Shown here: one piece after another, positions 1 through 30,565 of the stretch
How positions within the stretch are numbered: position 1 is the first letter of the stretch
Layout: each line of letters opens with the position of its first letter
NCBI RefSeq assembly: GCF_002854065.1
Contig: NZ_CP024147.1
Source: Escherichia coli
GTDB lineage: Bacteria > Pseudomonadota > Gammaproteobacteria > Enterobacterales > Enterobacteriaceae
Length of the DNA: 64,000 nucleotides
Strand: one strand, 5' to 3'
Translations under genes and position numbers: made by a program
Notes under the pieces: model-generated
The model's input: the letters and a program-made list of their open reading frames with translations, nothing else
Databases searched by the model: none
What the model was told of the DNA's origin: nothing

Positions 1-54
1 TGCTAATTGAGAACCAACTTGTCCAGTGAATCCTGTAATTAATACATTATTCAT
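1..54 (-). CDS. 5' end (about 18 codons) of an SDR-family nucleotide-sugar dehydratase/epimerase gene that runs off the window start
   Basis: Minus-strand ATG at 54-52; translation MNNVLITGFTGQVGSQLA carries a TGxxGxxG Rossmann motif typical of GDP/dTDP-sugar 4,6-dehydratases; remainder lies outside the window. Confidence 0.4.
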   Translation of the reverse strand, partial: MNNVLITGFTGQVGSQLA

Positions 55-60
55 ATATGC

Positions 61-894
61 TTACCCCTTAATAACGTTTAAATATGATTCACATGATCTA
101 TCAAGAATAGATTCGAGAAAACGACTTTTGGTATTAATTTTTTTTGGCCTACCCAGCCAAAATGATTCTGGCGCATCTGTAAATTGATACTGCAGTTCTG
201 GAAATTTTTCCTGCGCTAGCGCCAAAACAATCTGTTGTCGACTGACAAGATCCGGGCCGGAGAAATTAACGATGCGAGTATCAATTTGGCTCCAATTCAA
301 TATAATATTTTTGATGCCTAACAATACATCATTAATTGAAACAACACTGCGCTCAAAACCATCAAATACATCTAATAATTTACTATTCAAACTGTGCTCT
401 TTTACCATTTCAGAGAATTTATCACCTTTCCCTAAAATGTACGAAAATCGTATTACGAAGAACCCAGGGTTATTTGAAAAATGTTCTTCAACTTCACATT
501 TCATTTGACCATATTTGCCAAATGGTTTTCGTTCTGACATTTCAGTGCACACATCAGATGTACCACCAAATACAACATCACTTGATGAGAAAATCACTCG
601 CGCATTTTTTTTAAGTAATTCAGATATCAAAGTAATTGTATTTTTCACATTAATCTTATGCGCAACGTCATAGTTTTTCTCACATTGATCAGGCGCAGAG
701 ACTGCTGAAAGAAAAATGATGGTGTCATCATTGTTTACTTGATCCAGTAAATCATTAAATTCACCAGTTTCCAGATCAAAATGAATATCTGAATTTTTTC
801 TTCCAACTGTTACCAGCGAAAAAGCATCACTAAGAAATGATTTAAGATGATTACCAACGTAACCAGTAGACCCTAGAATGAATACTTTTCTCAT
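61..894 (-). CDS. NAD(P)-binding SDR-type nucleotide-sugar reductase/epimerase (RmlD-like), O-antigen cluster
   Basis: 277 aa ORF with N-terminal GSTGYVG Rossmann motif; AT-rich; co-oriented and tightly packed with the O-antigen genes. Confidence 0.55.
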   Translation of the reverse strand: MRKVFILGSTGYVGNHLKSFLSDAFSLVTVGRKNSDIHFDLETGEFNDLLDQVNNDDTIIFLSAVSAPDQCEKNYDVAHKINVKNTITLISELLKKNARVIFSSSDVVFGGTSDVCTEMSERKPFGKYGQMKCEVEEHFSNNPGFFVIRFSYILGKGDKFSEMVKEHSLNSKLLDVFDGFERSVVSINDVLLGIKNIILNWSQIDTRIVNFSGPDLVSRQQIVLALAQEKFPELQYQFTDAPESFWLGRPKKINTKSRFLESILDRSCESYLNVIKG

Positions 895-967
895 ACTCAG
901 TTACCAAATTATACGAAGTGAAGATGTATGCACATAAAATGCTATGAAGACAATTTTATCTGCCATT

Positions 968-1942
968 TTAATAACCGACGGATAGCTCAAATACACCGTC
1001 ATGATCTTTGGTATCTTTAAATTTAATTTTATAAATTTTATTATGATTAAGGCGAAGCCAGAAACTGTTGTCTTTAATGGATACTCTTTCCCAATCACTT
1101 GTTGTGGTTTTAAAACTGACGGAGACCACATCAACATCAATATTAAAATTAACATCTGAATATTCAGCTGTTGGATTTATATCTCCAACCTTAAAAGCTA
1201 CTGTTTCAGTATTTTTGTATTCCAGGAGCTTAAGCCCATAACTTGTCAGTTTCATAATCAAATTATATTTATTGTATACACTGTCACTTGGACCTTCATC
1301 CAGAACAACACCGTTTTCAATGCAAACAAGTCGATCGGAAAGGAGCTTCAACTGGTGTTCGTCATGCGAAACGATGACGACTGTTGTGTCTGACTTTATT
1401 TTTTCACGAATGCTTTTTTGTGCTTTCTCTGCAAAAGTCACGTCACCGACACCCAGTACTTCATCAATTAACAGAACTTCAGGGGTAGTATACATGGCAA
1501 TTGAGAAACCCAAACGTGCTAGCATACCTGATGAATAATTTTTAATTGGTTTTTCGAAGAACTCATTAAGCTCTGAATATACTTTGATGTCTTCAATAAT
1601 TGATTTGATATAAGACAATCTATGACCGAGGACCATTCCACTAAAGATAGTATTCTGACGACCTGATAAGTTGGGATCAAATCCTGCCTGAAGGGCCATT
1701 AGAGAAATACTGTTTGAATGAATAGTTATTTGCCCAGAATCAGGCTTAATAATACCCGCCAGAACTCGTAGTAATGTAGATTTCCCTGCTCCATTACGCC
1801 CAATTATTCCAAGAGTTTCGCCACGATAAACATCGAATGTAATGTTTGTCAAAGCTTCATATTCATCGTAAGTAAAGAGTGTTTTCTTTTCTCTATAAAC
1901 TAAACCTACGTTTTTTAGCTCAATAATCTTTTCATTCTTCAT
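968..1942 (-). CDS. wzt: O-antigen ABC transporter ATP-binding protein Wzt, with an ~85 aa C-terminal extension
   Basis: Walker A GRNGAGKST, ABC signature YSSGM, Walker B LLIDEVL, H-loop SHD; 4 bp overlap with upstream permease gene; extra beta-rich tail after the nucleotide-binding domain. Confidence 0.85.
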   Translation of the reverse strand: MKNEKIIELKNVGLVYREKKTLFTYDEYEALTNITFDVYRGETLGIIGRNGAGKSTLLRVLAGIIKPDSGQITIHSNSISLMALQAGFDPNLSGRQNTIFSGMVLGHRLSYIKSIIEDIKVYSELNEFFEKPIKNYSSGMLARLGFSIAMYTTPEVLLIDEVLGVGDVTFAEKAQKSIREKIKSDTTVVIVSHDEHQLKLLSDRLVCIENGVVLDEGPSDSVYNKYNLIMKLTSYGLKLLEYKNTETVAFKVGDINPTAEYSDVNFNIDVDVVSVSFKTTTSDWERVSIKDNSFWLRLNHNKIYKIKFKDTKDHDGVFELSVGY

Positions 1943-2712
1943 TTCTGAACAACTCGTGGGAAGATGAATTCTAATCTCTTAAATGCATACAACGAAATAG
2001 AAATCATAATTAAAGAAAGCAGAACTACATATGCGAGCAGCTTAATATTTGGTGCATTATGATACATCAATACATCACGGTACGAACTAAGAATTACTGC
2101 CATCGGGTTAATGAAGAAAATCTTCGATTCCATCGCCGGTATACTTTTGTAATTGAAAAATATACCTGAGCAAAACATCATAATTTGAAGGCCGGTTTCA
2201 ATTACAAATGAAAAATCTCTGACAAAGGGAACAATGATTGACACTATCAAAGAAAATGCAACTATTAATAATAGCTGAACAAAAATGACTGGAATAATCC
2301 AAAGCAAGCCAAGAGTATAATCATAGCCGTACAAGACTAAAAAAATAAATAGCAGAATAAATACAAGTATCTGCTTTAACGCATCCTGCAATATAAATGT
2401 CAAAGGGAAGAATATCTTAGAAATATGTACCTGATTCATTAGGTACTTTCCTTGAATGATACTCCCTTGCGCATGACTAACGCTGCGACCAAACCATATC
2501 CAGGGGATCAGTCCAGTTAACAGGAATGGGACGTAATCATGACCACCTTGCTTAAGAAGATATGCAAAAACCAAATAGTAAATTGCCATTTGAAGGACTG
2601 GTTCGATAATCCACCAAGCATAACTTAAATAGTTTATTGATGCTTCTGATTTTAGATTAAGCTTTGCTTTAACCCAAACCAATTCAAGGGTTTTTAACGA
2701 CATGATACTCAT
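1939..2712 (-). CDS. wzm: O-antigen ABC transporter permease Wzm (ABC-2 type)
   Basis: 257 aa, highly hydrophobic multi-span protein immediately upstream of and overlapping wzt. Confidence 0.85.
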   Translation of the reverse strand: MSIMSLKTLELVWVKAKLNLKSEASINYLSYAWWIIEPVLQMAIYYLVFAYLLKQGGHDYVPFLLTGLIPWIWFGRSVSHAQGSIIQGKYLMNQVHISKIFFPLTFILQDALKQILVFILLFIFLVLYGYDYTLGLLWIIPVIFVQLLLIVAFSLIVSIIVPFVRDFSFVIETGLQIMMFCSGIFFNYKSIPAMESKIFFINPMAVILSSYRDVLMYHNAPNIKLLAYVVLLSLIMISISLYAFKRLEFIFPRVVQK

Positions 2713-2713
2713 G

Positions 2714-5650
<2,937 letters not shown>

Positions 5651-5654
<4 letters not shown>

Positions 5655-6520
5655 TCACCTTTTGCACGTGCTATAATGTATTGACCATAATCATTTTTCT
5701 TCATAGGTAGTGCATTTTTTATTGCTTCTTCTTTGCTTAACCAACCATTTCTTAATGCAATCTCTTCAAGACATGCAACCTTGAGGCCCTGAACATTCTG
5801 GATGGTTTGCACGAAGGATGACGCTTCATGCAAACTTTCGTGGGTCCCTGTATCCAACCAAGCAAAACCACGCCCCAGTAGCTCTACGTTAAGAGTACCT
5901 TCTTTGAGATACATGTCATTAAGATCAGTAATCTCCAGCTCCCCTCTCACTGAAGGTTTAACTTTTTTAGCGAAATCGATAACGCGATTATCATAGAAGT
6001 AAAGTCCAGTGACTGCATAATTTGATTTTGGTTTTGACGGTTTTTCTTCAATAGATACAGCCCGCATCTCGCTATCAAATTCAACTACACCGAAGCGTTC
6101 AGGGTCTTTCACTTGATAACCAAATACTGTTGCACCGTATTCTCTTGCAACAGCATTCTGCAGGATTTTGATAAATGATTGGCCATAAAAAATATTATCA
6201 CCCAGCACCAAACAAACTTTATCGTTTCCTATAAATTTCTCACCAATGAGGAATGCCTGCGCTAATCCATCAGGGCTGGGTTGCACGGCATAATTAAGCC
6301 GAATACCAAAATTACTGCCATCACCGAGTAACCGCTGGAAACTCGCATTATCTTCTTCAGTGGTTATTATTAATATATCTTGAATACCCGCTAGCATAAG
6401 TGTGGAAAGCGGGTAATAAATCATTGGTTTATCATAGATTGGTAATAGTTGTTTTGATACACCACGAGTTATTGGATACAATCTAGTGCCAGAGCCGCCT
6501 GCTAAAATAATACCTTTCAT
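5651..6520 (-). CDS. rmlA: Glucose-1-phosphate thymidylyltransferase
   Basis: 289 aa; [19 protein letters not shown]-terminus and overall RmlA/RfbA sequence signature. Confidence 0.95.
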
Positions 6521-6532
6521 CTTTTATCCTTA

Positions 6533-7621
6533 CTACTCTACGAGCCCTAAGCGTTCACCAGCGTACGAACCATCCATCACACGCTGCCACCATTCTTTAT
6601 TATTTAAATACCAGTGAATGGTTTTAGTGATACCCGTTTCAAACGTTTCTTGCGGCACCCAACCTAAATCTTGTTTAATTTTACTGGCGTCAATGGCATA
6701 TCTAAGGTCATGCCCTGGACGATCGCTAACATACCGAATCAACTGTTCAAAATTTTCAATGCCATCTGGTTTATCTGCAATCAATTCATCGAGAATGCGA
6801 CAAATAGTTTTCACTACATCGATATTTTTACGTTCGTTATGACCACCAATATTATATGTTTCTCCCGGCACACCCTTTGTGACGACTTCATAAAGTGCCC
6901 GGGCATGATCTTCAACATATAACCAATCTCGAATTTGCTCACCGTTCCCATAAACAGGTAAAAGTTTACCCGCAATTGCATTCAGAATAATTAACGGAAT
7001 GAGTTTTTCAGGGAAATGGTACGGCCCATAATTATTAGAACAATTTGTCACTATGGTGGGTAATCCATATGTACGCCGCCATGCACGAACTAAGTGATCA
7101 CTGGATGCCTTAGAGGCGGAATATGGACTGCTAGGGGAATATGAAGTTTGTTCTGTAAACAATGGCAATATTGTATCTGACGATACTTCATCCGGATGAG
7201 GAAGGTCACCATAAACCTCATCCGTAGAAATATGGTGGAAGCGAAATGCACCTTTGCGATCTTCACTAAGTGCTAGCCAATACTTACGAGCTTCTTCTAG
7301 TAAGATATATGTTCCAACAATATTGGTTTCAATAAAGTCTGCAGGGCCTGTGATTGAACGATCAACGTGGCTTTCGGCTGCCAAATGCATTATTGCATCT
7401 GGTTGGTGATGTGCAAAAATATTGGCTATTGCAACGCTGTCGCAAATATCCGCATGCTCAAATTTATACCGCTCGTTATTCTCAATCTCTGTCAGAGATT
7501 CCAAATTACCTGCATAGGTAAGTTTATCAACATTGATGACAGAGTCTTGCGTATTATTAATTATATGACGAACAACTGCAGACCCAATAAAACCTGCACC
7601 ACCTGTAACCAGTATTTTCAC
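6533..7621 (-). CDS. rmlB: dTDP-glucose 4,6-dehydratase
   Basis: 362 aa; [22 protein letters not shown]-terminus; first gene after the galF-rmlB intergenic region, as in E. coli rfb clusters. Confidence 0.95.
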
Positions 7622-7715
7622 TTTGAATTTCCGCTATGACTTATAACTTATGGCTTGATAATATGAATGTTTGTTAAGAACAATCTGAATATTAAAAAAG
7701 ACACTTATGATTAGA

Positions 7716-7727
7716 CACGCTACCGCC
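7716..7727 (-). promoter_or_regulatory. ops element (GGCGGTAGCGTG) within a JUMPstart sequence; RfaH-dependent antitermination signal for the O-antigen operon
   Basis: Plus strand reads CACGCTACCGCC, so the minus-strand transcript carries the exact 12-nt ops consensus about 95 bp upstream of the rmlB start. Confidence 0.75.
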
Positions 7728-8044
7728 CCTGGCTCTCCAGCTACCAGCGCACTGCACCTTCAATGATAAAAATCATTTATGTCAAGGTAAAAATCCGCAA
7801 CGACTCCCACCTGCAAACCCAAAAAATTTCGGCAACTATTTTCGTCTTAAATGCATTTGAACTCAAGGAAAAATCTTATAAACGATATGCAACGCCTACA
7901 TTTCTAACCTATTGTTATTTTTTACTTTGTTTTATGAAATAAAAAGGCAGTGAAGCTAGTAGTAGGTTACCCTACATACTTATGCCCATCTGCCGTTCTA
8001 AAACGCCGTTCTTAAATTTGCTTTATCGTTTACTGAGAAACGAC

Positions 8045-8935
8045 TTAAGATAACAACTTTTCAATACTTTTCCTGATCTTAGCCCCTTCCTTCAGGTTGC
8101 GCAACCCATACTGCACAAACGCCTGCATATACCCCATCTTCTTCCCGCAGTCGTAGCTCTCACCCGTCATCAGCATCGCGTCAACAGACTGCTTATTCGC
8201 CAGTTCGGCGATCGCATCCGTCAGTTGAATTCGGCCCCACGCCCCCGGCACGGTCTTCGCCAGTTCAGGCCAGATATCAGCGGAAAGTACATAGCGGCCT
8301 ACGGCCATCAGATCGGATTCCAGCGTCTGCGGCTGGTCAGGTTTTTCGATAAAATCAACGATACGGCTAACTTTACCTTCGACATCCAGCGGCTCTTTCG
8401 TTTTGATGACGGAGTATTCAGACAGGTCGCCCGGCATACGTTTCGCCAGCACCTGGCTACGCCCGGTTTCGTTGAAACGCGCCACCATGGCGGCAAGGTT
8501 GTAGCGCAGCGGGTCGGCGCTTGCGTTGTCCAGCACGATATCCGGCAACACAACCACAAACGGGTTATCGCCGACAATCGGATGTGCGCACAGGATAGAG
8601 TGTCCCAGGCCCAACGGCTGCGCCTGGCGAACGTTCATGATGGTCACGCCAGGAGGACAGATAGATTGAACTTCAGCCAGCAGCTGACGCTTCACGCGCT
8701 GCTCAAGCAGTGCTTCCAGTTCATACGAGGTATCGAAGTGGTTTTCCACCGAGTTTTTCGATGCGTGTGTGACCAGAACGATTTCTTTGATCCCTGCAGC
8801 AACCACTTCGTCGACGATGTACTGAATCATCGGCTTGTCAACGATCGGCAGCATCTCTTTAGGGATGGCCTTCGTGGCAGGTAGCATGTTCATACCCAAT
8901 CCCGCTACCGGAATGACTGCTTTCAAATTAACCAT
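8045..8935 (-). CDS. galF: UTP-glucose-1-phosphate uridylyltransferase regulatory paralog GalF
   Basis: [43 protein letters not shown] matches GalF; ORF track start at 8947 probably over-extended by 4 codons. Confidence 0.93.
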
Positions 8936-9069: not shown

Positions 9070-10467
9070 TCAGCGGCGCGGCAGCGCAAAATTGAGGCGT
9101 TCTGTGTTGACAACATGCTGATCGACCCGATCAATATCCACCGCCGCCTGCCCTTTCTCATTCACCGCCCTCACGTTCGCCAGCGACAGCAGCGTATCCT
9201 GCTTCGCCATAAACTTCCCACGCACATCCTTGCGTAAATCGAAGTTCAGCTTCAGCGCAGGCCCACGAAAGGAGAGCTGCATCACGTTGATGTTCCTCAA
9301 AAAAATGTGTTGCGGTTTGTTATGAATCTCCAGCGAAGCGTGCTTCATGGACAGGTTGGTGATAGAGACAAACGAGGGGTTGTTACCCGAGGAAATTTGA
9401 ATACCGCGGACCGTATAGGCCAAAGCACTGTTGTCCATCTGTATATTATTCAGGCGGAAGTTTTGCGGTATCGACAAATAATTACCTTTGATAACACCGT
9501 AGCCAATCAGCATTCCCGCGCTATTAACCATATCGACACCATCAATAACGAAATTATCACAGCCGTAGATCGCCACCGTGGCGTTATCTATTCCCGCCTG
9601 CTTGCTGAATTCCGGCGTGATATTGCTGGCTTTCACATTACGTATAATAAAGTGTTTGCCGTTTTCCACGTGCACCAGCTGGCGGCAGTTGCTGCCGGTG
9701 ATGTTGGCGACGACAAAGTTTTTCACCGCCTGCTCTTCCGGGTAGCCATTATCGTAGGTGCTGCCGGCCAGGCCGATCCCGATGCCCCAGTTGACCTTAC
9801 CGTTGGTGCAGTCGATATGGTCGATGACGTGGTCGGAGATAAGGATATTGCGGTCGTTAATCGCCACGTTCCACTCAATGGCGTCGCCCTGCAGATAGCT
9901 GAAGTGGCAGTGGGTGATGTTCACATCAAGCCACTGATTATGGTAGCCCTGACGCAGAATACCGTAATTGGCTTTGGTGATGGTCAGGCGGGTAATGGTC
10001 AGGTTACGCAGCGTACGCTTGTCTTTCCCGCCGATGAAAATCTGCACCACTGGGCCGTAGCCGCTCATCGTCAATCCGGCAATCGTACAATCACTACCAC
10101 GGACGTCCAGCGTAATGTTGTAGAGGCTGGCTTCACCGCTGCCGATCACCTGGCAGCCCTTTTGCAGGATAAAGCGCCCGCGCCCGTTGCCTTTCAGGGC
10201 ACCGGCAACCGCCAGCGTTTTCCCCGGCGGCAGCGTAATCGCCGTATTGATATTGTCGCAAACCACACTCGCTGGCACGTTGACGGTGTCGGCCTGCGCG
10301 AAGGCCTCATTGAACGCGCGGATCCAGTCGCCATTGTGCACGTAGTCACGTATGTCCACTGCCGAGCGCTTCTCAGCAGCACGCGCGGCGGTTGCTGAAA
10401 GTACCGGTAAGGCCGCGGCAAGCGTTGCCCCGGCGATAAGGAAGTAACGTCGGGTTAAGGTGTGCAT
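9070..10467 (-). CDS. wcaM: Colanic acid biosynthesis protein WcaM (Tat-signal, beta-helix protein)
   Basis: 465 aa; N-terminal [16 protein letters not shown] twin-arginine signal; position between galF and wcaL. Confidence 0.88.
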
Positions 10468-10476
10468 AGCGCCTCC

Positions 10477-11700
10477 TTAGCAAAGCGTCTGCAGCAGGCT
10501 GGCAAGCTGCCGGTTAATCACCTGCTGATTAAAATCGGTTTCGACTTTCTCACGTGCGCGCGCCAGCACCGGCTGCAGGCTGTGCGCATCCATCCGGCCA
10601 AGTGATTGCAGTTTGTCTGCCAGCGCCGTGGCGTCGTACTCCTCCACCAGCCAGCCGGAATGACCGGAGTCAATCAGTTCCGGGATGCCGCTGTGGACCG
10701 TCGACAGCACCGGGATCCCCACCGCCATCGCCTCCATGAGCGCCACCGGAATACCTTCCATATCGCCATCGGCCCCCGTTACCGAGGGCAGCAGGAAGAC
10801 GTCAGCTTCATCAAGCAGCATTTTCACTTCATGGCTGGGCTTAAAACCCGGCATTTCTACGTGATCTTCCAGCTGATACTGTTCAATCAGGGTGCGCAGA
10901 CGGCGCTCCCACGGCCCGATGCCGAGGATGCGATAGCGAAAGTTGACGCCACGCTCTTTCAGCTGGCGGCAGGCTTCAATCGCCACATGCAGCCCCTTTT
11001 TCTCGGTCAGACGCGCAACGGAGAGTATCTGCAAGCAGCCATCGGGCGCTTTTAGCGGGCGCAGCGAGAAGCGGTCCATGTTTACGCCCATTCTTGATAC
11101 GGTAATTTTATCCGTCGGGCAGCCCATCGCCTGCAGCCGGTCTGCCCACAGTTGGCTGATGGGCAACATCATGTCGCCGCGGCGGAACAGCTGCTGATAT
11201 TCGCTGGTGTAGTGGTTCAACACTCCGCGGCTTGAGATATCAATACCGTGAAAGACGGTGGCTATCTTCCCGTCGATCACCCCCAGTTCGCGCAGCTTGG
11301 CGGCGGTCACTCCTGCCGGGCCAAAGTGGGCGATGTAAACATCGGCGACAATCGGCGCGGGAGTGCGGCTACAGATAGAAGAGAGGATCAGATTGCGCGC
11401 CTCCTGCCCGTAGCGCCGCGCGTTTAACGCCCGCCAGACGGCGGGACGGTGTAAACCGCGCAACGTGCTGAACGCGCGATAGCGTAGCTTCTCCAGCGCC
11501 GTTGACGGCTCATCCTGTAACCAGCGAACTTTGTCCGCCAGTTGATACTGGGTATAAGCCGCATGAGTATTGGTCAGGTCGCCCTTTTGTAGGGCGACAA
11601 TCTCCACCTCATAACCCATCTCGATGAACGCCACGATCTGGTTTAAGACAAACGTCTCAGACGATAAAGGAAATTTCAGCAGGAAGAAGCTGACTTTCAT
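10477..11700 (-). CDS. wcaL: Colanic acid glycosyltransferase WcaL (GT4 family)
   Basis: 407 aa; position and length match wcaL; 4 bp overlap with wcaK. Confidence 0.88.
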   Translation of the reverse strand: MKVSFFLLKFPLSSETFVLNQIVAFIEMGYEVEIVALQKGDLTNTHAAYTQYQLADKVRWLQDEPSTALEKLRYRAFSTLRGLHRPAVWRALNARRYGQEARNLILSSICSRTPAPIVADVYIAHFGPAGVTAAKLRELGVIDGKIATVFHGIDISSRGVLNHYTSEYQQLFRRGDMMLPISQLWADRLQAMGCPTDKITVSRMGVNMDRFSLRPLKAPDGCLQILSVARLTEKKGLHVAIEACRQLKERGVNFRYRILGIGPWERRLRTLIEQYQLEDHVEMPGFKPSHEVKMLLDEADVFLLPSVTGADGDMEGIPVALMEAMAVGIPVLSTVHSGIPELIDSGHSGWLVEEYDATALADKLQSLGRMDAHSLQPVLARAREKVETDFNQQVINRQLASLLQTLC

Positions 11701-12977
11701 CGGCCCTCCCGGATGCGGTTCAGCACCGATTCAATCATGGTGAAGCCCTTCTGGCGTTCCCCCTCCACCGCCGCGGCGACTTTCTCGCCCAGCGCCGGAA
11801 GCTGGTTGAGAATATCGCCCACCACGCCTTGCATCGAGCCGTCGAGCAGGTGACGAATGTCGATGGCCATCTCAGGCATACCCAGCTGCTGCATAATGCC
11901 CGCTGATTTGTGCTCGTAGTTAATGGCAATCGCCGGCGTGCCGAAGTTCATCGAGATGATCGCCGAGTGCAGGCGGGTACCAATGGTCAGTTCGCAGGAG
12001 GCAAGAATTTTGCCAATCTCCACGTCATTAAGTTCGTCCATGGCGATGTGGAAATGCTCGCGGTTTTTGACGTACTGCGCCATGCGCAGCGCGACCATGC
12101 GGTCATCGCGGTTGTAGCGGTCGATACTGGTGCAAGTAGAAAGCGCCAGCACCTGATAACCGTCGTCAATCATACGGTTCACCACCTCGGCAAACGCTTT
12201 TTCATAGGCCTGCTGGGTTGTACCCAGACGCTTATCAAACGGCTCCAGCTCGCGCAGAGTAATCGCCACGGTTTTACGCTGTGCGGTCAGGTTCAGCCAG
12301 TGCTGTACCGCGTAGCTCGGTTCGAAACTGTCGTTACGATGCTCAACCAGCCAGGCGGTGTCCACGCCCTGCTCCACCTTACCGGTGTCGATATTCGCCT
12401 TCGCCATCAGCTCACGGCTGACGGTTTCACGCAGAATCAACGCGTTAGTGCGGCCAAAGACGTAGTTCGCCAGCTCGTTGAAGTCCGGGTTCTGGAACGG
12501 GCCAACGCTGTGGCCAATCATGTAGATAGGCTTGTTGGCCATAAAGGCGCACAGCGGGTACTCAAAGTGAGTCAAGCCGTAGAGATCGACGTAGTTCGAC
12601 CCACCTACCTGAATAATCGCGTCATAGTTGCCAAGGAAGCGCACAAACTCATGAAACTCTGGCGCAATTTCAAAGTTGCGCAGTTTGCCTTCGCCGGTCA
12701 CCTTGGCCAGCAGGATCTTGTGCTGGAAGCGGCGACGCAGCACTTTCTTCACGCGCCCGCTCACCCCTGCAGCCGCCTGCTGTTTCTGGCTCAGCTGATA
12801 CAGCGGATCGGCAATAATCTCACGCCCCTGCAACCAGGAGGAACTGATCGGGAAACGGCTCATTACGTCCATTTCAACGTCCGGCTGCTGGCGAAGAATC
12901 GCATCGAGCAGGCCGCGCATAATCGCGCTGTCGCCGCGGTTGCCGCAGGTGTGGTTTCCCAAAATTAGTAATTTCAT
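11697..12977 (-). CDS. wcaK: Colanic acid pyruvyl transferase WcaK
   Basis: MKLLILGNHTCGNRGDSAI N-terminus (polysaccharide pyruvyl transferase); ORF track start at 13007 is probably an upstream extension. Confidence 0.88.
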   Translation of the reverse strand: MKLLILGNHTCGNRGDSAIMRGLLDAILRQQPDVEMDVMSRFPISSSWLQGREIIADPLYQLSQKQQAAAGVSGRVKKVLRRRFQHKILLAKVTGEGKLRNFEIAPEFHEFVRFLGNYDAIIQVGGSNYVDLYGLTHFEYPLCAFMANKPIYMIGHSVGPFQNPDFNELANYVFGRTNALILRETVSRELMAKANIDTGKVEQGVDTAWLVEHRNDSFEPSYAVQHWLNLTAQRKTVAITLRELEPFDKRLGTTQQAYEKAFAEVVNRMIDDGYQVLALSTCTSIDRYNRDDRMVALRMAQYVKNREHFHIAMDELNDVEIGKILASCELTIGTRLHSAIISMNFGTPAIAINYEHKSAGIMQQLGMPEMAIDIRHLLDGSMQGVVGDILNQLPALGEKVAAAVEGERQKGFTMIESVLNRIREGR

Positions 12978-13008
12978 CATGGCCTCATCAAAAAGGGGTT
13001 CAAGCAAA

Positions 13009-14490
13009 TCAATCAGGAACGCGTAATAACGTTTTCAGTTTTCCGCTCCGACAGAGCGGTTTTTTTAGTTCAAGCAACAGGCTGTGGCGTGACAGCATGA
13101 TCACCAGCGCAAAGCTGACTACCCCCGCCAGCACCTGCATCGCCAGCAGCGCCGAGAGCGAAACGCTGCCTTCCAGCAGTCGCCCCACCGCGTAGCTTGA
13201 AATCAACGTCGGCAGAGAGAGACGGAACGGCAGCCACAGGCTCAGCAGGTAATCGCGGTAGCCCGGCCCCAGCACCGGTTTGATCATCACGAAATAGCTG
13301 AGGATGGTGTTGATGATTTGCACCAGCAGGAAGCCCAGCGTGACGCCAATCGCGCCGCCGAGCTGCCCGCCGATAATCACCGCAGGAATAAACAGGAAGG
13401 TCTTAAAGACGTTGAATTTAAAGCTGATATCCACTCGCGCTTTAGCCATCAGCAGCGAACCGATTGGGTTGCCCACCGAGCGCAGCAGCCCCACCACGCA
13501 CAGCAACTGGAGGATTGGCACGATGTGCAGCCATTTGTCGCCGAACACCAGCGGCACAAAGTTATTGCTCACCACCATCAGCCCCAACAGCGCCGGGAAA
13601 TTGATGATCCCCACCACCGACAGCAGCTTGTAGAAGTTCACTCGCAGCTTGTCGGTGTCGTCCTGAATCTTGGCGAACGCCGGGAACAGCACGCGGGTGA
13701 TGATTGGGTTAAGCTTCATCGGCGGCACCACCGCCACGTTGTAGGCGAGGTTATAGCCCCCGGCCACGCTGGCGCCGAGGATGCGCGCGAGCGTCAGCGT
13801 CGACAGGTTAGTGTTGATGTAGTTAACAATACTGTCCGCCGTCAGCCACGCGCCGAAGCGCAGGTTCGGCATGACCGTGGTCAGCGAAAAATGCAGACCT
13901 GGACGGTAAATCTTGCGGCCAAAATAGCCGAACAGCAGCGTACGCACGGCGCTGTTGACCAGATAACCCAAAATTGCGGTCATCGCCAGCGGCCAGAAGC
14001 AGGCGCTAATCACCGTAAAGGTAAAGCCCGACAGCACCGCTGCGGTCTCAATGGAGCCGATTTTGTTAAACTCCAGCTCTTTTTGCATCAGCGCACGAAA
14101 TTGCTGGCCGTGGGGGATCACCACGAAGGCCAGCGACAGCGTTTTGATCAACGGCGCGAGATCCGGGTTGTGCAGCAACCGCGCAATGGTATCGCTCAGC
14201 AGATACACCGCGGCAAACACCGCAATCCCCAGCCCGACGTTCAGCCAGTAGAGCGTGGTCAGCTCAATCTGGCTGATGGCTTTACGCTGAATAATCGAGT
14301 TGGCGATACCAAAATCCGACAGCGTGTCCGCCAGCGCGATAATCACCAGCGACACGGTGAGCAGACCAAACTGATGGCCGTCAAACAGCCGCGCCAGCAC
14401 GGTCATCTGCGCCAGCCCCAGGCCAATAATCACCACCGTCGCCATCGCCGACCATTTCGCGCCATTGATGGTTTTTTCTCTCAGGCCCAT
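13009..14490 (-). CDS. wzxC: Colanic acid repeat-unit flippase WzxC
   Basis: 493 aa polytopic membrane protein; position between wcaJ and wcaK. Confidence 0.9.
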   Translation of the reverse strand: MGLREKTINGAKWSAMATVVIIGLGLAQMTVLARLFDGHQFGLLTVSLVIIALADTLSDFGIANSIIQRKAISQIELTTLYWLNVGLGIAVFAAVYLLSDTIARLLHNPDLAPLIKTLSLAFVVIPHGQQFRALMQKELEFNKIGSIETAAVLSGFTFTVISACFWPLAMTAILGYLVNSAVRTLLFGYFGRKIYRPGLHFSLTTVMPNLRFGAWLTADSIVNYINTNLSTLTLARILGASVAGGYNLAYNVAVVPPMKLNPIITRVLFPAFAKIQDDTDKLRVNFYKLLSVVGIINFPALLGLMVVSNNFVPLVFGDKWLHIVPILQLLCVVGLLRSVGNPIGSLLMAKARVDISFKFNVFKTFLFIPAVIIGGQLGGAIGVTLGFLLVQIINTILSYFVMIKPVLGPGYRDYLLSLWLPFRLSLPTLISSYAVGRLLEGSVSLSALLAMQVLAGVVSFALVIMLSRHSLLLELKKPLCRSGKLKTLLRVPD

Positions 14491-14499
14491 GTCACTTCC

Positions 14500-15894
14500 T
14501 CAGTAGGCTGCTTTGTTGACAAAGCCTTTGAATACCGTCAGGAAGACGATCTTGATATCGAGCCACAGGCTCCACTCGCGGATGTATTCGAGATCGAACT
14601 CCACCCGTTTTTCCATCTTCTCGAGGGTATCGGTTTCACCGCGCCAGCCGTTGATCTGCGCCCAGCCGGTAATACCAGGCTTCACTTTGTGGCGCAGCAT
14701 GTAGCCTTCAATCAGTTGACGGTACTGTTCGTTGTGCGCCACCGCGTGCGGACGCGGGCCGACGATAGACATGCCGCCGGTGAGCACGTTGATAAACTGC
14801 GGCAATTCATCCAGCGAGGTGCGGCGCAGGAAGTTGCCGACACGGGTCACACGCGGGTCGTTTTGCGTCGCCTGTTTCACCACCTTGTCGTTCTCCATGA
14901 CCTTCATCGAGCGGAATTTCCACACTTTGATCGGCTTACCATCCATACCGTAGCGGGTCTGGCGGAAGATGATGGGGCCCGGCGAACTCAGCTTCACCGC
15001 CAGCGCGATACAGCACAGCGCAGGCGAAATCAGCAGCAGAATGCCCAGCGCCAACACGATATCCTCCAGCCGTTTGATAATACGATTCACCCCGGAGAGC
15101 GGCGTGTCGTACAGCGGCACCAGCGGAATACCGTTCACCACCTCTACGCGTGAATGCAGGATGTTGAAGGTGAAAACATCCGGGATCAGCAGCACCGAGC
15201 AGGTGGTGTCGGCGAGAGAACGGACCACCTCTTTAATCTGGCTCTCTTCCTGCATCGCCATCGAGATGTAGACGTTGTGGATTTTGCCGCTGCGGGCATC
15301 GTCGAGTAGTTGTTCAAGATTGCCCATCCAGTCGGCGTTAACGCCGCCTGGTTTAGCATCGTAATAGCTGCCGACCACTTCATAGCCCAGCCACGGCTGG
15401 TTGCGGAAGCTTTCGAGCAGCGCCTGCCCTTCCGGCATGTCCCCGGCGACGGCCACATAGCGGGTGTTATAGCCGCGATGGCGCAGCATGCCAGCGCCGT
15501 AGCGAATGAACGCGCGGCTCGCCAGCATGCCGATGGTGCTAATCAGATACCACGCCAGCCACATGGTAAAGTTGGTATTAAAATCATCGTTAAACGCCAG
15601 CAGTCCGGCGGCAAACACCAGGCTCAGCGTCCAGTTCTGCAACAGCAGCAGCAATTCGGTGGTGATACGCACGCCGCGCCAGGAGCGGTAGAAATCGGTA
15701 ATCCCGCCAATCATCTGGAAAACGACCAGCGTCACCAGCGCCATCAACAGATGGAGATATAAAAACGGCAACGCAACCGCCTGACACACCAGCCACAATC
15801 CCCCCAACATGATGGTGATGTCGGAAAAACGCTGCACCATGGAGATTAACGATGCATTCGTTTTAGCTCGTTCGCGCTTTTTTAGAGTCGTCAT
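14500..15894 (-). CDS. wcaJ: UDP-glucose:undecaprenyl-phosphate glucose-1-phosphate transferase WcaJ
   Basis: Probable start MTTLKKRERAKTNASLISMVQRF; C-terminal sugar-transferase domain; the ORF track's 43-aa N-terminal extension (MPLTLTLSPERRG...) is translation of the intergenic palindromic repeat. Confidence 0.9.
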   Translation of the reverse strand: MTTLKKRERAKTNASLISMVQRFSDITIMLGGLWLVCQAVALPFLYLHLLMALVTLVVFQMIGGITDFYRSWRGVRITTELLLLLQNWTLSLVFAAGLLAFNDDFNTNFTMWLAWYLISTIGMLASRAFIRYGAGMLRHRGYNTRYVAVAGDMPEGQALLESFRNQPWLGYEVVGSYYDAKPGGVNADWMGNLEQLLDDARSGKIHNVYISMAMQEESQIKEVVRSLADTTCSVLLIPDVFTFNILHSRVEVVNGIPLVPLYDTPLSGVNRIIKRLEDIVLALGILLLISPALCCIALAVKLSSPGPIIFRQTRYGMDGKPIKVWKFRSMKVMENDKVVKQATQNDPRVTRVGNFLRRTSLDELPQFINVLTGGMSIVGPRPHAVAHNEQYRQLIEGYMLRHKVKPGITGWAQINGWRGETDTLEKMEKRVEFDLEYIREWSLWLDIKIVFLTVFKGFVNKAAY

Positions 15895-15920
15895 CGTTGG
15901 TCCTATTCGTCGTTTCCCTT

Positions 15921-16020
15921 CACCCCGCCTCTCTCCCCAAAGGGGCGAGGGAGAAAAACCAATCCGCAGCCTGCACGTTCGGTTCCCTCTCCTCTCTGGG
16001 GAGAGGGTTAGGGTGAGGGG
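15921..16020. repeat. ~100 bp nested palindromic REP/MITE-like element, copy A, in the manB-wcaJ intergenic region
   Basis: Outer arms CACCCC...GGGTGAGGGG enclosing two GC-rich hairpins (CCTCTCTCCCCAAAGGGGCGAGGGAG and CCCTCTCCTCTCTGGGGAGAGGG); its reverse complement matches the copy at 27857-27945. Confidence 0.75.
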
Positions 16021-16026
16021 CAATAA

Positions 16027-17397
16027 TTACTGATTAAGCAACGCCAGAATGTCCTGCGTTCGCGCCTGCATCAGCGGCGTATTTCCGCGAGACTCCACGT
16101 TTAAGCGCACCACCGGTTCGGTATTGGAAGAACGCAGGTTGAAGCGCCAGTCGGCAAACGCCAGGCTGATGCCGTCAGTACGGTCGATCTCCAGCGCGCT
16201 GCCGGCAAAGTGTGCTTCCACGCGGGCAATCGCTTCTGACGGTGCCGCCAGATGACTGTTGATTTCACCGCTCGCCGGGAACGCCGCCATGCGGTCGCGC
16301 ACCAGTTCACCCAACGTTTTGCCCTTCAGGCACAGCAGTTCGCTGACCAGCAGCCAGGGGATCATGCCGCTGTCGCAGTAGGCAAAATCACGGAAGTAGT
16401 GGTGAGCGCTCATTTCACCGCCGTAAACCGCGTCGTCCTGACGCATGCGCTCTTTAATAAAGGCATGACCAGTTTTCGACATCACTGGCGTGCCGCCCGC
16501 CGCCGTGACGACGTCCACGGTGTTCCACGACAGACGCGGGTCGTGAATGATGCGCGCGCCGGGGTTCTTTTCGAGGAAGGCTTCCGCCAGCAGGCCGACG
16601 ATGTAGTAGCCCTCGATAAACTGCCCTTTCTCGTCGAACAGGAAGCAGCGGTCGAAGTCGCCATCAAAAGCGATACCCATATCGGCACCGTATTTGATGA
16701 CCGCATCGCGGGTATCCGCGCGGCACTCCGGCAGCAGCGGGTTAGGAATACCGTGCGGGAAGGTTCCGTCCGGGGTGTTGTGCACTTTGATCAGGTTCAC
16801 CGGCACATTCAGCGCTTTGAAGCGGGCTTCCAGCGCGTCAATCACCGGGCCTGCCGCGCCGTTACCGGAGTTCACCACCAACTTCAGCGGCGTCAGGTTT
16901 TGCACGTTGATGTAGCCCAGCAGGTGGTCGATATAGGCGTCACGCAGGTTGATTTTCTGGTAGCTACCGCGCGCGGCCTCATTGACCGGCGGGAAGTCGT
17001 TGGCTTCCGCCAGGCGCTGTACGTCGCGCAGGCCGGTATCGCCGCTGATGGGGCGTGCGCCTTCCCGCACCAGCTTCATGCCGTTGTAATCCATCGGGTT
17101 ATGGCTGGCGGTCACTTCGATACCGCCATCAACGCCGAGATGGAAGGTGGCGAAGTAAATCTCTTCGGTGCCGGAAAGCCCGATATCGAGCACGTCAACG
17201 CCCGCGTCGCGCAGGCCATTGGCTAACGCCAGTTTCAGCGCCTCGCTGGTCAAGCGCACATCGCCGCCCAGCACGATAATTTTCGGCTTCAGATATTCAC
17301 CGTAAGCGCGGCCAATGCGCCACGCGATGTCTTCATTCAGCTCTTCACCGAGCTTGCCGCGGATGTCGTAGGCTTTAAAACAGGTTAATTTCGTCAT
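16027..17397 (-). CDS. manB: Phosphomannomutase
   Basis: Probable start [14 protein letters not shown]; phosphohexomutase active-site region TASHNP; position between manC and wcaJ (cpsG in K-12 nomenclature). Confidence 0.92.
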
Positions 17398-17465
17398 GTT
17401 TTTACCTTTCTTCAGGCAACAGTTCGCCCTGACCGTTATGGCCATCAATTTTGGTGTCGTGATTT

Positions 17466-17490
17466 GCCGGATGCGCCGCGCTTATCCGGC
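17466..17490. repeat. REP-like palindrome in the manC-manB intergenic region
   Basis: GCCGGATGCGCCGCGCTTATCCGGC, the classical enterobacterial REP stem GCCGGAT...ATCCGGC. Confidence 0.6.
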
Positions 17491-17500
17491 CAGCCGGGCG

Positions 17501-18937
17501 CTACACGCGCCCGTAACGATCCTGGAAACGCACCACGTCGTCCTCTTCCAGATAGGCGCCAGATCGCACCTCAATCAGGTCGAGCGGGATTTTCCCCGGG
17601 TTTTCCAGGCAGTGGGTGACGCCAAGGGGGATATAGATAGATTCGTTCTCACCCAGCAGCGTAATTTGGTCATTGAGAGTGACTTTGGCGGTGCCCGCCA
17701 CCACGATCCAGTGTTCCGCCCGGTGGTGATGCATCTGCAGCGACAGCCCTTCCCCCGGCTTCACGGTGATGCGCTTAACCTGATAGCGATCGCCGGAATC
17801 AATCGAGTCATACTTGCCCCACGGGCGGTAGACTTCCCGGTGGATGTGGTGTTCGTGGCGGCCGTCGGCCTTAATCTTCTCGACCACCTTTTTCACGTCC
17901 TGCACCGCGTTGCGATCGGCGATAAGCACCGCGTCTTTGGTTTGCACCACCACCAGGTCCTTTACCCCGACGGTCGTCACCAGGCCAGACTCTGCATAGA
18001 CATAGCTGTTTTCGGTTTTATGGCTGATGACATCGCCATGGTGCACGTTGCCTTCCGGCGTATGGTTGCTTATCTCCCACAGCGATGACCAGGAGCCGAC
18101 ATCGCTCCAGCCCGCGTCCATCGGCACCACTACCGCATCCGCGGTCTGCTCCATCACCGCATAATCGATGGATTCGTCCGGGCAGCTCAGGAACGCCGCT
18201 TCATCGACGCGGATAAAGTCGAGATCCGGGTCGGTGACGTCCATCGCTTTTTCGCAGGCGCGAAGAATATCCGGGCGATATTTGCCCAGCTCTTCCAGAT
18301 AGCGCCCGGCGCGGAACAGGAACATGCCGCTGTTCCAGTAATATTCACCGCTGGCGACATAGGCCTGTGCGGTATCGAGATTGGGTTTTTCGACAAACTG
18401 CGCGACGTCGAAGGCCAGCGTGTCGTCGGTACCCGGCGTGACATCACCACGGCGAATATAGCCGTAGCCGGTTTCCGGCACGTTCGGCACGATACCGAAG
18501 GTCACCAGCTTGCCATTTTCAGCATACGGCGTGGCATGACGAACCGCCGCGCGGAAGGCCTCTTCGTCCTGAATCACATGGTCCGCCGCCAGCACCAGCA
18601 TCAGCGGGTCGCAGTCCGGTTCGCGACGCTTAGCCGCCAGCGCCGCCAGGGCGATGGCTGGCGCCGTGTTGCGCCCTGCCGGTTCCAGAATAATGTTTTC
18701 GGTCAGCTTGTTGAGTTGACGCAGCTGTTCCGCCACGATAAAGCGGTGTTGCTCATTGCAGATCACCACCGGGCTGGCGCACTTCACGCCGTCCAGCCGG
18801 TTCACCGTGGCCTGCAGCATGGTCATGTCCCCTTTCAGGCACAGGAACTGTTTGGGGTACAGCACTCTGGACAGCGGCCACAGTCGGCTACCCGAGCCAC
18901 CGGCCATCACGACCGGGAAAAGCGTAGTTTGACTCAT
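17501..18937 (-). CDS. manC: Mannose-1-phosphate guanylyltransferase
   Basis: 478 aa; N-terminal [14 protein letters not shown] nucleotidyltransferase motif and C-terminal cupin domain (cpsB in K-12 nomenclature). Confidence 0.93.
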
Positions 18938-18940
18938 CGT

Positions 18941-20164
18941 TTAACCCCGAATATCAGCAATAAATTGGTTGAGAACGTGTTCTTTATCGAGCGAACGTTC
19001 GGCCCAGGCGCGGGCGACCGCATTTCGCTTCGGCATCTTCAGCGCCTGCTCAATCCCTTCCACCAGCGACGGAACCGATTCAGGCGTCACGCACACCGCA
19101 ATGCCCGGATTGTCCAGACATAGCTGGCCCAGCTCGGTCTGCAGTTCAGCGGTAATCACCGCGTTGCCGCCCACCGCCAGAATATTGGTCAGCTTGGAAG
19201 GCAACACCGCATCCGCGGCGCCACGCTTCTGAATCACCAGATGGCAGTCGCCAATCGCCAGCAGCGCGGGTAAATCTTCGTACGACTGCAGCGGCAGGAA
19301 CTTGACGTTATCCAGCCCGCGTTCGGCGACCATTTTTTCCAGCCGCGCTTTACCGCCGCCCTGACCGACAATGGCAAACAGCCACGGCTGTTCACGTAGC
19401 TGTTCGGCGGCAGTAATCACGCTCTCCAGCCCCTGTTTCTCACCGATATTGCCGGAGTAGAGAATAATTTTGCGTTCATCCGGCAGGCCAAGACGCTGAC
19501 GCAGCGCCATCACCAGCGTTTCCGGCACCTCGCGAAAACGGGAAACTTCCGACCAGTTGGGGAAGAAAATCACCTTCTCCGGCGCAACGCCCTTCTCGCA
19601 GGCTTTGTTCATCATTGAGCGCGAGATGGTCGATACGTTGTCAACGTTGTGCAGCCCGCTACGCTCAAAGGCGCTGGCAAGTTTTGCCACCTTGCCGGCG
19701 CGACCGTTGCCTGCCATGCCCAACCCCAGCATGGCGTCGACTTCATAATCCTGAATATGCAGCAGCGTCCGCGCGCCGGAGAGCTTCGCCAGCAGGCGCA
19801 TACCGGGGGTGCAGAACAGCGTCGGCACTACGCCGATAATGCGATCCGGCTTCCAGCGGCGTTGGGCCATCAGCGGGAAGAAACTGCTGAGCGCAAAGCT
19901 GCCGAGATGGATCAAACGCTTCAGCGTCGACAGCTGCTTTGGCACATACAGCGGGCAGCGCCAGACGGTGGCATCGCCGTTTTCCCGGCGGTAACGCCAG
20001 CTTGAGTATTTCGCGCCAACCTGCCATTCCGGATAGTACGGCGGCGCGGTAATCACTCGCACCTCGTGACCCTGCTGCACCATCCACTCGACCATTTCGC
20101 CGGTGTATTTGCCGATGCCGGTGAGTTCAGGCGAATAGTTGATGCCATACACCAGAATCTTCAT
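18941..20164 (-). CDS. wcaI: Colanic acid glycosyltransferase WcaI
   Basis: 407 aa GT4-type protein; position between gmm and manC. Confidence 0.88.
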
Positions 20165-20640
20165 AGGCCCTGCACCTCGGCCAATTTGTCGACCCGGAAA
20201 TAGGCGCGGCTGTTTTCATGAACGTTGTCCGACGCCAGTAACGCAGGCGGTGTCAGCCAACGGTACTCATTATGCTGATCGTCCGGCAGCGTTAAGGTCC
20301 CGGCGTCCACCTGCAGGCGGAAACCAAGCACAATGTAATGGGTCGAAAAATCCGTACCGCAGAAATTCTCGTCATAGAAATGCTGCCAGACTCCGTAAAA
20401 GCGGCCTGCCGTCATCGGCAGGCTCAGCCCCAGTTCGGCCTCGGTCAGGCGGGCAAACGCCTGTTCCAGCGTTTCATCTTTCTGTACCCGCCCGCCCGGC
20501 ACAAACCAGTACCCCTGCGCCGGACGATTGTTGCGCTTACCCAGCAAAAACTCGCCCTGCGCGTTCTCGACGATCAAATCGATGGAGATCAGCGGCGTAG
20601 ACTGCACCACGGTGGCAAACGCTTCCTGGCTCAGAAACAT
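20161..20640 (-). CDS. gmm: GDP-mannose mannosyl hydrolase (NUDIX)
   Basis: 159 aa; position directly downstream of fcl (wcaH). Confidence 0.88.
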
Positions 20641-20643
20641 GCG

Positions 20644-21609
20644 TTACCCCCGGAAGCGGTGCTGGCTTTCCAGAAACCACTGGTAAGTGCTGGCAAGACC
20701 AGCCTCCAGCGAGATTTCGTGGTACCAGCCCAGTTGATGCAGGCGAGAAACATCGAGCAGCTTGCGCGGCGTGCCGTCGGGTTTGGTGGCATCAAACACC
20801 ACCCGCCCTTTAAAGCCCACCACTTTCACCATCGTCTGCGCCAGTTCACGAATGGTGCAGTCAACGCCGGTGCCAACGTTAATATGCGACAGCATAGGCT
20901 GCGTGTTTTCGAGCCAGACGCCGCGATCCAGCTCCATCACATGGATACTGGCAGCCGCCATATCGTCCACATGCAGGAACTCGCGCATCGGCGTGCCGCT
21001 CCCCCACACCACCACGTCCGCGGCGTTTTGCTGTACCGCTTCATGGAAGCGGCGCATCAGCGCCGGAATAACGTGCGAATTGCTCGGGTGGAAGTTATCG
21101 TTCGGCCCGTACAGGTTGGTCGGCATCACCGAGCGATAGTCGCGATTATGCTGGCGGTTGTAGGACTCGCACAGCTTGATACCGGCAATTTTCGCAATCG
21201 CGTACGGTTCGTTAGTCGCTTCCAGCGTGCCCTGCAGCAGCTCGCTTTCGTGCATTGGCTGGTTAGCCATTTTCGGATAGATGCACGATGAACCGAGAAA
21301 CAGCAGCTTATTCACGTTGTGCGTATGCGCCGCGTGAATAATGTTGCTTTCAATCATCATGTTCTCGTAGATGAAATCCGCCGGGAAGGTGTTGTTGGCC
21401 ACAATGCCGCCCACCTTTGCCGCCGCCAGATACACCTGATCAATATTTTCAGCGGCGAAGAAGTCGTTCACTTCGCGGCTATCCAGCAGGTTGAGCTCAT
21501 CGCGGCCGCGAACCACCAGATCCACGTCGCCGCGTTGTGCAAGCTGTCGGACGATGGCCGAGCCCACCATTCCCCGGTGGCCCGCCACAAAAATACGTTG
21601 TCTGGTCAT
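20644..21609 (-). CDS. fcl: GDP-L-fucose synthase (GDP-4-keto-6-deoxymannose 3,5-epimerase/4-reductase)
   Basis: 321 aa; N-terminal [18 protein letters not shown]ossmann motif; immediately downstream of gmd. Confidence 0.93.
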
Positions 21610-21611
21610 AC

Positions 21612-22733: not shown

Positions 22734-22757
22734 TCTATTTTCCTCAAATTGTCCCGT

Positions 22758-23312: not shown

Positions 23313-23321
23313 TTGGTATCC

Positions 23322-24068: not shown

Positions 24069-24076
24069 GCTTCACC

Positions 24077-27822: not shown

Positions 27823-27856
27823 GGTATATCCCCGAATAAGCGTTTGAGCGGTTGTT

Positions 27857-27945: not shown

Positions 27946-27951
27946 ATGTTA

Positions 27952-30114: not shown

Positions 30115-30116
30115 GG

Positions 30117-30560: not shown

Positions 30561-30565
30561 GACGG

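Follow-up and report, generated by a model that had tools for sequence, protein, structure and literature searches.

A Kluyvera-type tract of about 67 kb spans the base-composition step at the O-antigen locus of Escherichia coli with an O52-type cassette

The O52-type cassette and the GC step at galF

The window analyzed here, a stretch of 64,000 nucleotides from an Escherichia coli chromosome (RefSeq assembly GCF_002854065.1, contig NZ_CP024147.1), begins inside an AT-rich O-antigen cassette that meets galF and the colanic-acid (wca) cluster at a sharp step in guanine-plus-cytosine (GC) content. The cassette is located between galF and gnd, and the part lying within the window includes the genes for a predicted ATP-binding cassette (ABC) exporter (Table 1). 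Strain CUWW06 is identical to the window over positions 1-9,000 and carries the remainder to the left, where dmhA, hddA, gmhA, hddC, gmhB, glycosyltransferase genes and a methyltransferase gene extend up to gnd. Labels assigned there by the Prokaryotic Genome Annotation Pipeline (PGAP) are 4,6-dehydratase, isomerase, nucleotidyltransferase and phosphatase, and the gene at the hddA position is called 'hypothetical protein'; its product carries GHMP-kinase Pfam domains. The gene set for dTDP-D-fucofuranose is present and consists of rmlB, rmlA, fcf1 and fcf2, the last of which, going by literature cited in PMC7685785, encodes the dTDP-fucopyranose mutase of O52. Only 4 of 5,426 complete E. coli genomes are 100% identical to the window over positions 1-9,000, and in these PGAP names fcf1 and assigns wzm and wzt to the 'O52 family'. 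The gene set for GDP-6-deoxy-D-manno-heptose (dmhAB, hddAC and gmhAB, named after PMC7685785) is likewise present. Gene content and order (rmlB, rmlA, fcf1, fcf2, glycosyltransferase, wzm, wzt, dmhBA, hddA, gmhA, hddC, gmhB onward), the position between galF and gnd and the ABC-transporter pathway all agree with the E. coli O52 cluster as summarized in Liu et al., 2020 (PMC7685785), after Feng et al., 2004 and Wang et al., 2008, and the cassette itself shows no difference from it. Judged by its sequence, the AT-rich block corresponds to the O52 O-antigen cluster of E. coli, which follows the ABC-transporter pathway.

The change from AT-rich to GC-rich sequence is abrupt and lies at the 3' end of galF. 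Sliding GC content is 0.32-0.37 over positions 1-5,500, 0.39-0.42 over 5,500-7,750 and 0.52-0.62 from 8,000 on. A two-segment likelihood scan placed the maximum-likelihood change point at 8,081, both for positions 1-20,000 and for the whole 64 kb, with a GC content of 0.360 on the left and 0.573 on the right (2ΔlnL = 886); 500 shuffles of 100-bp blocks gave a mean of 27 and a maximum of 84. This step is the largest in the window. Third-position GC is 0.26-0.36 in the O-antigen genes, with 0.31 for rmlA and rmlB, compared with 0.65 in galF and 0.69-0.78 in the wca genes. The sliding-GC check proposed in an earlier note on this DNA therefore finds a significant step over the galF-rmlB junction, and the note's description of AT-rich sequence with AT-biased codons below galF and GC-rich sequence with GC-rich third positions beyond it is borne out. 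The note had further let the step coincide with the spacer between galF and rmlB. The spacer does hold a JUMPstart element and forms the cassette edge, but the step falls ca. 36 nt inside the 3' end of galF, so that the whole 423-bp spacer, JUMPstart included, lies on the AT-rich side. A minor step from 0.343 to 0.396 is present at 5,512, and rmlA and rmlB are thus intermediate; GC within the cassette is graded, with 0.40-0.41 in rmlBA and 0.33-0.36 in the other genes. In CUWW06, the AT-rich block measures 16.85 kb at a GC content of 0.364 and its edges are exactly the galF stop codon and the gnd start codon. No integrase, tRNA, insertion sequence (IS) element or direct repeat was found at either of these two GC boundaries.

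The JUMPstart element is a full-length match to RF01707 (model positions 1-38 of 38, above the gathering score of 35) upstream of the first gene of the operon, and shows no difference from JUMPstart/ops elements preceding the first gene of polysaccharide operons. JUMPstart/ops functions in RfaH-dependent transcription antitermination, not in recombination, and nothing in this locus comparison shows it acting as a recombination site. Cassette transcription would proceed along the minus strand, out of the galF-rmlB spacer and past JUMPstart/ops. A promoter-like site is found in the spacer at 7791-7763; matches in the promoter and terminator scan are not above chance. The ops octamer GGCGGTAG occurs eight times in the window compared with 1.3 expected copies (none of 100 shuffles reached eight), at 7720, 17824, 41215, 42649, 45130, 45640, 55991 and 59440. 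Only the site at 7720 lies within JUMPstart, and the excess may be compositional.

Table 1. Coordinates of the features described in the window.
Feature	Position	Strand	Basis or remark
O52-type cassette, AT-rich, part within the window	1..8080	-	GC 0.36; runs ca. 8.8 kb past the window start to gnd
Putative dmhB-like short-chain dehydrogenase/reductase (SDR), GDP-6-deoxy-D-manno-heptose pathway	61..894	-	Open reading frame; weak RmlD-type match only; name from PMC7685785
wzt, ATP-binding subunit of the O-antigen ABC exporter	968..1942	-	ABC ATPase match; PGAP 'O52 family' in identical genomes
wzm, ABC exporter permease	1939..2712	-	ABC-2 permease match; PGAP 'O52 family' in identical genomes
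Family-2 glycosyltransferase (GT2)	2714..3568	-	GT2 family match
glf-family mutase (fcf2 in O52)	3565..4698	-	TIGR00031, 324.5 bits
fcf1, dTDP-4-dehydro-6-deoxyglucose reductase	4701..5654	-	PGAP name in identical genomes; SDR fold match
rmlA (rfbA)	5651..6520	-	TIGR01207, 513.7 bits; GC 0.395; 99.9% identical to Kluyvera YDC799
rmlB (rfbB)	6533..7621	-	NF007490, 689 bits; GC 0.409; 99.8% identical to YDC799
galF-rmlB spacer, 423 bp	7622..8044	-	GC 0.359
JUMPstart element	7716..7754	-	Rfam RF01707, 56 bits, E = 1.8e-11; ops octamer at 7720-7727
galF, Kluyvera-type	8045..8935	-	NF007516, 639 bits; identity 98.4% to YDC799, 80.6% to K-12, ca. 85% to most E. coli
Maximum-likelihood GC change point	8081..8081	none	Likelihood scan and block shuffles
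Complete colanic-acid cluster wcaM-wza, Kluyvera-type	9070..31699	-	WcaM family match; DNA 97-99% identical to Kluyvera, 71-80% to K-12
yegH, asmA, dcd, udk, split dgcE, alkA, yegD, Kluyvera-type	32343..42055	no single strand	
Right crossover, inside mdtA (42450-43703)	43139..43145	+	Informative sites in a three-way alignment; mdtA is a hybrid
Ordinary E. coli backbone	43146..64000	no single strand	96-100% identical to K-12

Identity to Kluyvera and the position of the crossovers

The GC-rich side of the step diverges from E. coli over a long distance. From 8,051 to 42,050, a region comprising galF, wca, yegH, asmA, dcd, udk, dgcE, alkA and yegD, the window is 67-80% identical to K-12, while positions 43,250-64,000 are 96-100% identical. 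The wca cluster matches those of K-12, O157 and other E. coli strains at 78-79%, and yegI, yegJ, pphC and yegL are missing relative to K-12. Left of the cassette in CUWW06, gnd is 86% and ugd 73% identical to K-12, the his operon 81% and plaP-tsuAB-sbcB 80%; at dacD, identity is back to 98.8%. This left part of the tract does not contain wzzB (at the position between ugd and hisIE), yeeY or the yoeB-yefM toxin-antitoxin pair; the absence of wzzB fits an O antigen of the ABC-transporter type, which does not use Wzz. Outside the cassette the tract has a GC content of 0.557, compared with 0.565-0.60 in Kluyvera flanks, 0.526 in K-12 wca and 0.52 in the E. coli part of the window. The contrast drawn in the earlier note between an imported block and a native flank consequently stands in one respect only: the cassette is compositionally alien to its flanks, but galF and wca are themselves 70-80% identical to K-12 and 98% identical to Kluyvera.

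The source of the tract is the genus Kluyvera. From galF through wca to yegD, identity reaches 97-100% with Kluyvera genomosp. 3 and related genomes. In a protein scan with WcaM that used one genome per species, Kluyvera genomosp. 3 YDC799 stood at 99% identity, K. georgiana at 95%, the other Kluyvera at 84-89%, and Citrobacter and Trabulsiella at 68-79%. The YDC799 chromosome (CP022114.1) aligns to positions 761-20,485 as a single match of 97.8% identity that runs straight across the GC step, and its own GC profile carries the same step. Identity per segment is 99.8% for rmlB, 99.9% for rmlA, 98.3% for the spacer, 98.4% for galF and 97-99% for wca. Additional Kluyvera contigs were reached via YegD homologues and via TsuB; the YegD encoded in the tract matches Kluyvera proteins at 99% or more, and exact look-ups of the tract Dcd and AsmA returned E. 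coli carriers only. On the left, the his operon to sbcB region of carrier EC24 is 97.8% identical to the Kluyvera chromosome CP078559.1. Synteny is kept throughout, with near-donor identity over one contiguous tract and recipient-level identity outside of it. The Kluyvera contigs likewise do not contain yegIJKL and have a short dgcE, and both features are therefore donor traits. Kluyvera dgcE is one intact gene of 779 amino acids, already shorter than that of K-12 (3,318 bp, ca. 1,105 codons). In the window it is split into 37421-39133 (570 amino acids) and 39155-39760 (201 amino acids), both on the plus strand, and was therefore apparently inactivated after transfer. Relative to E. coli O52, YDC799 also has a 1.5-kb gap that takes in most of dmhB (from ca. 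codon 45) and the 5' part of dmhA and may be real. An apparent decay of the O52 cluster in YDC799, with split wzt, wcaI and cpsB, was considered and rejected: the whole locus is fragmented, wca included, and assembly indel errors are likelier.

Both ends of the tract lie inside genes. Kluyvera contigs are 96-100% identical to the window from 30,703 to ca. 43,000 and ca. 80% identical thereafter, and the K-12 profile is the mirror image. Informative sites flip from Kluyvera-type to K-12-type between 43,139 and 43,145 (Table 1), and a few isolated donor-type sites just past this crossover suggest patchy mismatch repair. The left switch lies outside the window, 362-386 nt into sbcB, and is the same in EC24, CP142552.1, NCTC UGDN01, 100416 and SY3626. 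The two crossovers are located 35 kb (mdtA) and ca. 37 kb (sbcB) from the galF-rmlB spacer and delimit a tract of ca. 67.2 kb in CUWW06. Among the 5,426 complete E. coli genomes, 4 contain the O52 part of the tract and 5 the mdtA junction. Both crossovers, in sbcB and in mdtA, are common to all carriers examined.

A phage attachment (att) site with the core CGTAATCGTGAAACAAAAAGGTAGATTGTT is located within the first 50 nt of sbcB and, depending on the carrier, is occupied by different prophages or a decayed remnant, or is empty. Kluyvera-type DNA in CUWW06 seemed to begin precisely at a prophage beside sbcB, and we considered a prophage-anchored crossover or lateral transduction. This was ruled out. 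The att core lies in E. coli-type DNA and is separated from the crossover by 330 bp. The position of the crossover does not change between carriers that have a complete prophage, only a remnant, another prophage or no prophage at all. The integrase-proximal orientation is such that headful packaging would run away from the tract. In CUWW06 and 100416, the element at this site carries an acyltransferase gene adjoining dacD that could encode an O-antigen modifier.

Origin of the tract and rival explanations

Taken together, about 67 kb of chromosome, including both sides of the GC step, was very probably replaced by a syntenic Kluyvera segment, with crossovers in sbcB and mdtA. An E. coli ancestor would have exchanged sbcB, tsuBA, plaP, yeeZ, the his operon, ugd, gnd, the O-antigen region now holding the O52 cluster, galF, wca, yegH, asmA, dcd, udk, dgcE, alkA, yegD and mdtA for the corresponding chromosomal segment of a Kluyvera of the genomosp. 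3 or K. ascorbata-like type. The exchange was a double crossover between diverged homologues, at homologous positions in sbcB and in mdtA, and left two chimeric genes. RecA-dependent recombination would have acted on a fragment of 67 kb or more that entered by conjugation or by large-capacity transduction, and selection for the new O antigen may have driven fixation. We infer the direction, from Kluyvera into E. coli, from the graded identities within Kluyvera, the non-E. coli DNA found beyond both crossovers in Kluyvera and the rarity of the tract in E. coli. The crossovers shared by all carriers suggest a single founding event.

Several observations weigh against this explanation. The sequence at the mdtA crossover has a mismatch about every 6 nt and no long identical run, which is unusual for RecA-mediated exchange. 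No sequenced Kluyvera is the exact donor, the best identities being 97.8-99%, and the 67 kb are covered by different Kluyvera reference genomes for different parts of the tract. Identity to the YDC799 cassette is a mosaic, with 99.8% in rmlBA, 93.8% in wzt and the 1.5-kb gap at dmhB-dmhA. YDC799 is the one Kluyvera genome seen with an O52-type cassette, and its assembly is full of frameshifts. Finally, the shared crossovers are the sole argument for one founding event.

The deeper origin of the GC step is a separate matter. GC content falls right after the galF stop codon, from 0.51-0.54 to 0.32-0.42, in all loci compared, namely seven Kluyvera-type loci, Citrobacter, Trabulsiella, K-12 and the different cassette of SY3626. 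In K-12 the cassette has a GC content of 0.392 and the flank 0.526, and the respective values at the window locus are 0.361 and 0.557, a slightly steeper contrast because the flank is Kluyvera DNA. The step itself is the ordinary, textbook edge of an O-antigen cassette. It predates the transfer into E. coli, was inherited from the donor and is an old feature of this chromosomal position in the Enterobacteriaceae. One possible explanation of the low cassette GC, other than recent import from a low-GC organism, is that relaxed or different selection keeps it low in place, the genes being weakly or rarely expressed and often exchanged. This would fit the GC content of 0.29-0.49 found after galF in every O-antigen locus examined, of any genus or cassette, and the graded GC described in PMC7685785, where processing and glycosyltransferase genes lie below sugar-synthesis genes, a gradient also seen here. 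Where the cassettes of Kluyvera, Citrobacter and E. coli loci differ, homology breaks off at the galF stop codon. For rmlB and rmlA, identity to each of the other loci compared (YDC799 apart) is 66-76%, irrespective of genus, while galF identity broadly tracks taxonomy (83-88% for Kluyvera, ca. 80% for others). Being equally far from all enterobacterial homologues fits an outside source for rmlB and rmlA. We regard maintenance in place as somewhat unlikely. It is compatible with replacement of the tract by Kluyvera DNA.

The earlier note had regarded the spacer as the junction through which the cassette entered, that is, import of the O52 cassette alone into a native backbone by a crossover at or near the JUMPstart spacer with galF and wca resident. 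Three points would suit such an import: the GC step coincides with the spacer region, different O-antigen loci cease to be homologous at the galF stop codon, and PMC7685785 describes the exchange of O-antigen clusters through recombination in the genes that flank them. We nevertheless regard it as very improbable. Resident genes would not be expected to be 98% identical to Kluyvera, with galF at ca. 85% to most E. coli and wca at 78-79%; identity continues unbroken from galF through the spacer into rmlB, and the crossovers map to mdtA and sbcB. The more general view of the JUMPstart spacer as the classical junction does not hold at this locus either. In K. georgiana, wcaM is 91.8% and galF 83.1% identical to the tract, and among Kluyvera the exchange junction therefore lies upstream of galF and not at JUMPstart; the later replacement in SY3626 broke in gmd. 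Comparison of galF with rmlB, proposed in the earlier note as an incongruence test, gives a divided answer, in that rmlB and rmlA are indeed independent of genus but galF is itself incongruent with wcaM.

The reverse direction, passage of an old E. coli allele into Kluyvera, is hardly credible. Identity alone is symmetrical and the O52 cassette was seen in one Kluyvera genome only, which would permit either direction. Across Kluyvera, however, the identities of wca, yegD and his grade from 84% through 95% to 99%, as vertical descent predicts, and past the crossovers Kluyvera contigs are non-E. coli (mdtBC ca. 80%, dacD 76%). Moreover, only 5 of 5,426 E. coli genomes carry the tract and its GC content matches Kluyvera flanks. 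A chimeric assembly or Kluyvera contamination has nothing specific in its favor and is practically negligible. Both junctions are in-frame within homologous genes, and the same two recur in independently sequenced complete genomes (Gambia, Thailand, China and a soil isolate); NCTC strains and one contig of a gut metagenome have them as well.

Later history, known systems and significance

The tract differs between carriers in a patchy manner. SY3626 (CP059283.1) keeps both the sbcB and the mdtA crossover, and CP057705.1 keeps the sbcB crossover; the his-sbcB region of these two genomes is 90.7% identical to EC24. In SY3626, a third sequence type extends leftward from gmd, wca-galF is 87.7% identical to the window, and the cassette is a different O-antigen cluster of the ABC-transporter type with rfbBADC. 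The junction in gmd adjoins an insertion of ISKpn26 (IS5 family), far from JUMPstart, and SY3626 shows a nested second replacement within the tract. CP142552.1 shows 13-42 mismatches per kb, only left of window position 36 kb, and NCTC UGDN01 differs in his-sbcB (93%) and in mdtB. These patches suggest nested secondary exchanges within the original tract. A tentative extension is that O52 arose from one 67-kb Kluyvera event and that the tract has since served as a 'landing pad' easing Kluyvera-like exchange, which would explain the nested replacements in SY3626 and CP057705.1, where the O-antigen cassette is a different one, and in CP142552.1 and NCTC UGDN01, all within the original crossovers; we think this possible but on balance doubtful. 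The imported colanic-acid cluster is broken in several carriers, by IS1 or another IS in wza, a split wzc, or broken wcaC and wcaD. Long-read NCTC assemblies are among these carriers, and sequencing error may explain part of the breaks.

The E. coli backbone to the right of the crossover carries the 3' part of mdtA, mdtBCD, baeSR, yegP, parDE, yegQ, yegS and gat. A patch of ca. 0.8 kb at ca. 51,250-52,000, covering the mdtD 3' end and the 5' part of baeS, is 82-93% identical to K-12 and 65-77% identical to Kluyvera. Only 3 of 5,423 E. coli records match this patch at 99% or more, the others at 80-95%, and it represents a rare allele of the baeS sensor domain. The ParD/ParE toxin-antitoxin pair at 53,996-54,775, between yegP and yegQ, is absent from K-12, and the stretch is present in ca. 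1,843 of 5,426 E. coli genomes and thus ordinary. An IS5 copy lies in the gat operon at 62298-63502, where ca. 187 bp of the K-12 sequence are gone, namely the 5' end of gatA and the 3' end of gatZ; unlike K-12, the window has an intact gatR.

Transfer of O-antigen clusters between genera is known from the Klebsiella to E. coli transfers of O3 to O9a and O5 to O8 (Sugiyama, 1998, as relayed in PMC7685785). Going by that account, they resemble the present case in that an ABC-pathway cluster moved between genera at the his/rfb neighborhood with flanking donor DNA. Here the donor is Kluyvera and the cassette lies between galF and gnd. The ca. 67 kb are mapped end to end, from the crossover in sbcB to that in mdtA, and donor versions replace the his operon as a whole and all of the colanic-acid cluster. 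A survey across the Enterobacteriales attributed 218 between-genus locus-sharing pairs to recent exchange and reported movement of galF, gnd and ugd from one locus family to another (Holt et al., 2020; PMC7305143), and the travel of galF with the cassette described here fits those findings. That survey covers the galF-gnd/ugd interval only and maps no distant crossovers, and its main text names Kluyvera only in a genus list. The cassette shares a compositionally deviant block with sharp edges with genomic islands associated with integrases and tRNAs; here the edges are the ends of galF and gnd, and the process is homologous replacement instead of insertion. The GC step, JUMPstart, the O52 cluster and inter-genus exchange at this locus are already known, and what is new is a well-delimited Kluyvera case, which adds to the O52 cluster the Kluyvera source of its flanks and, probably, of the cassette. 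No paper linking O52 with Kluyvera was found in the literature searched.

The composition boundary at galF marks the meeting of different long-term histories and not the site of the latest transfer cut. Kluyvera is identified as the source of the O52 locus and of the 67-kb tract around it. Within the tract, versions diverged by ca. 20% have taken the place of the his operon, gnd, ugd, galF, all of the colanic-acid machinery and several housekeeping genes, and SbcB and MdtA are rendered chimeric. As a well-delimited natural case of very long inter-genus recombination at the rfb hot spot, the tract lends itself to studies of how far such exchange can go. For inference of serotype or multilocus sequence type, it means that gnd- and his-linked markers in carriers report Kluyvera and not E. 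coli ancestry.

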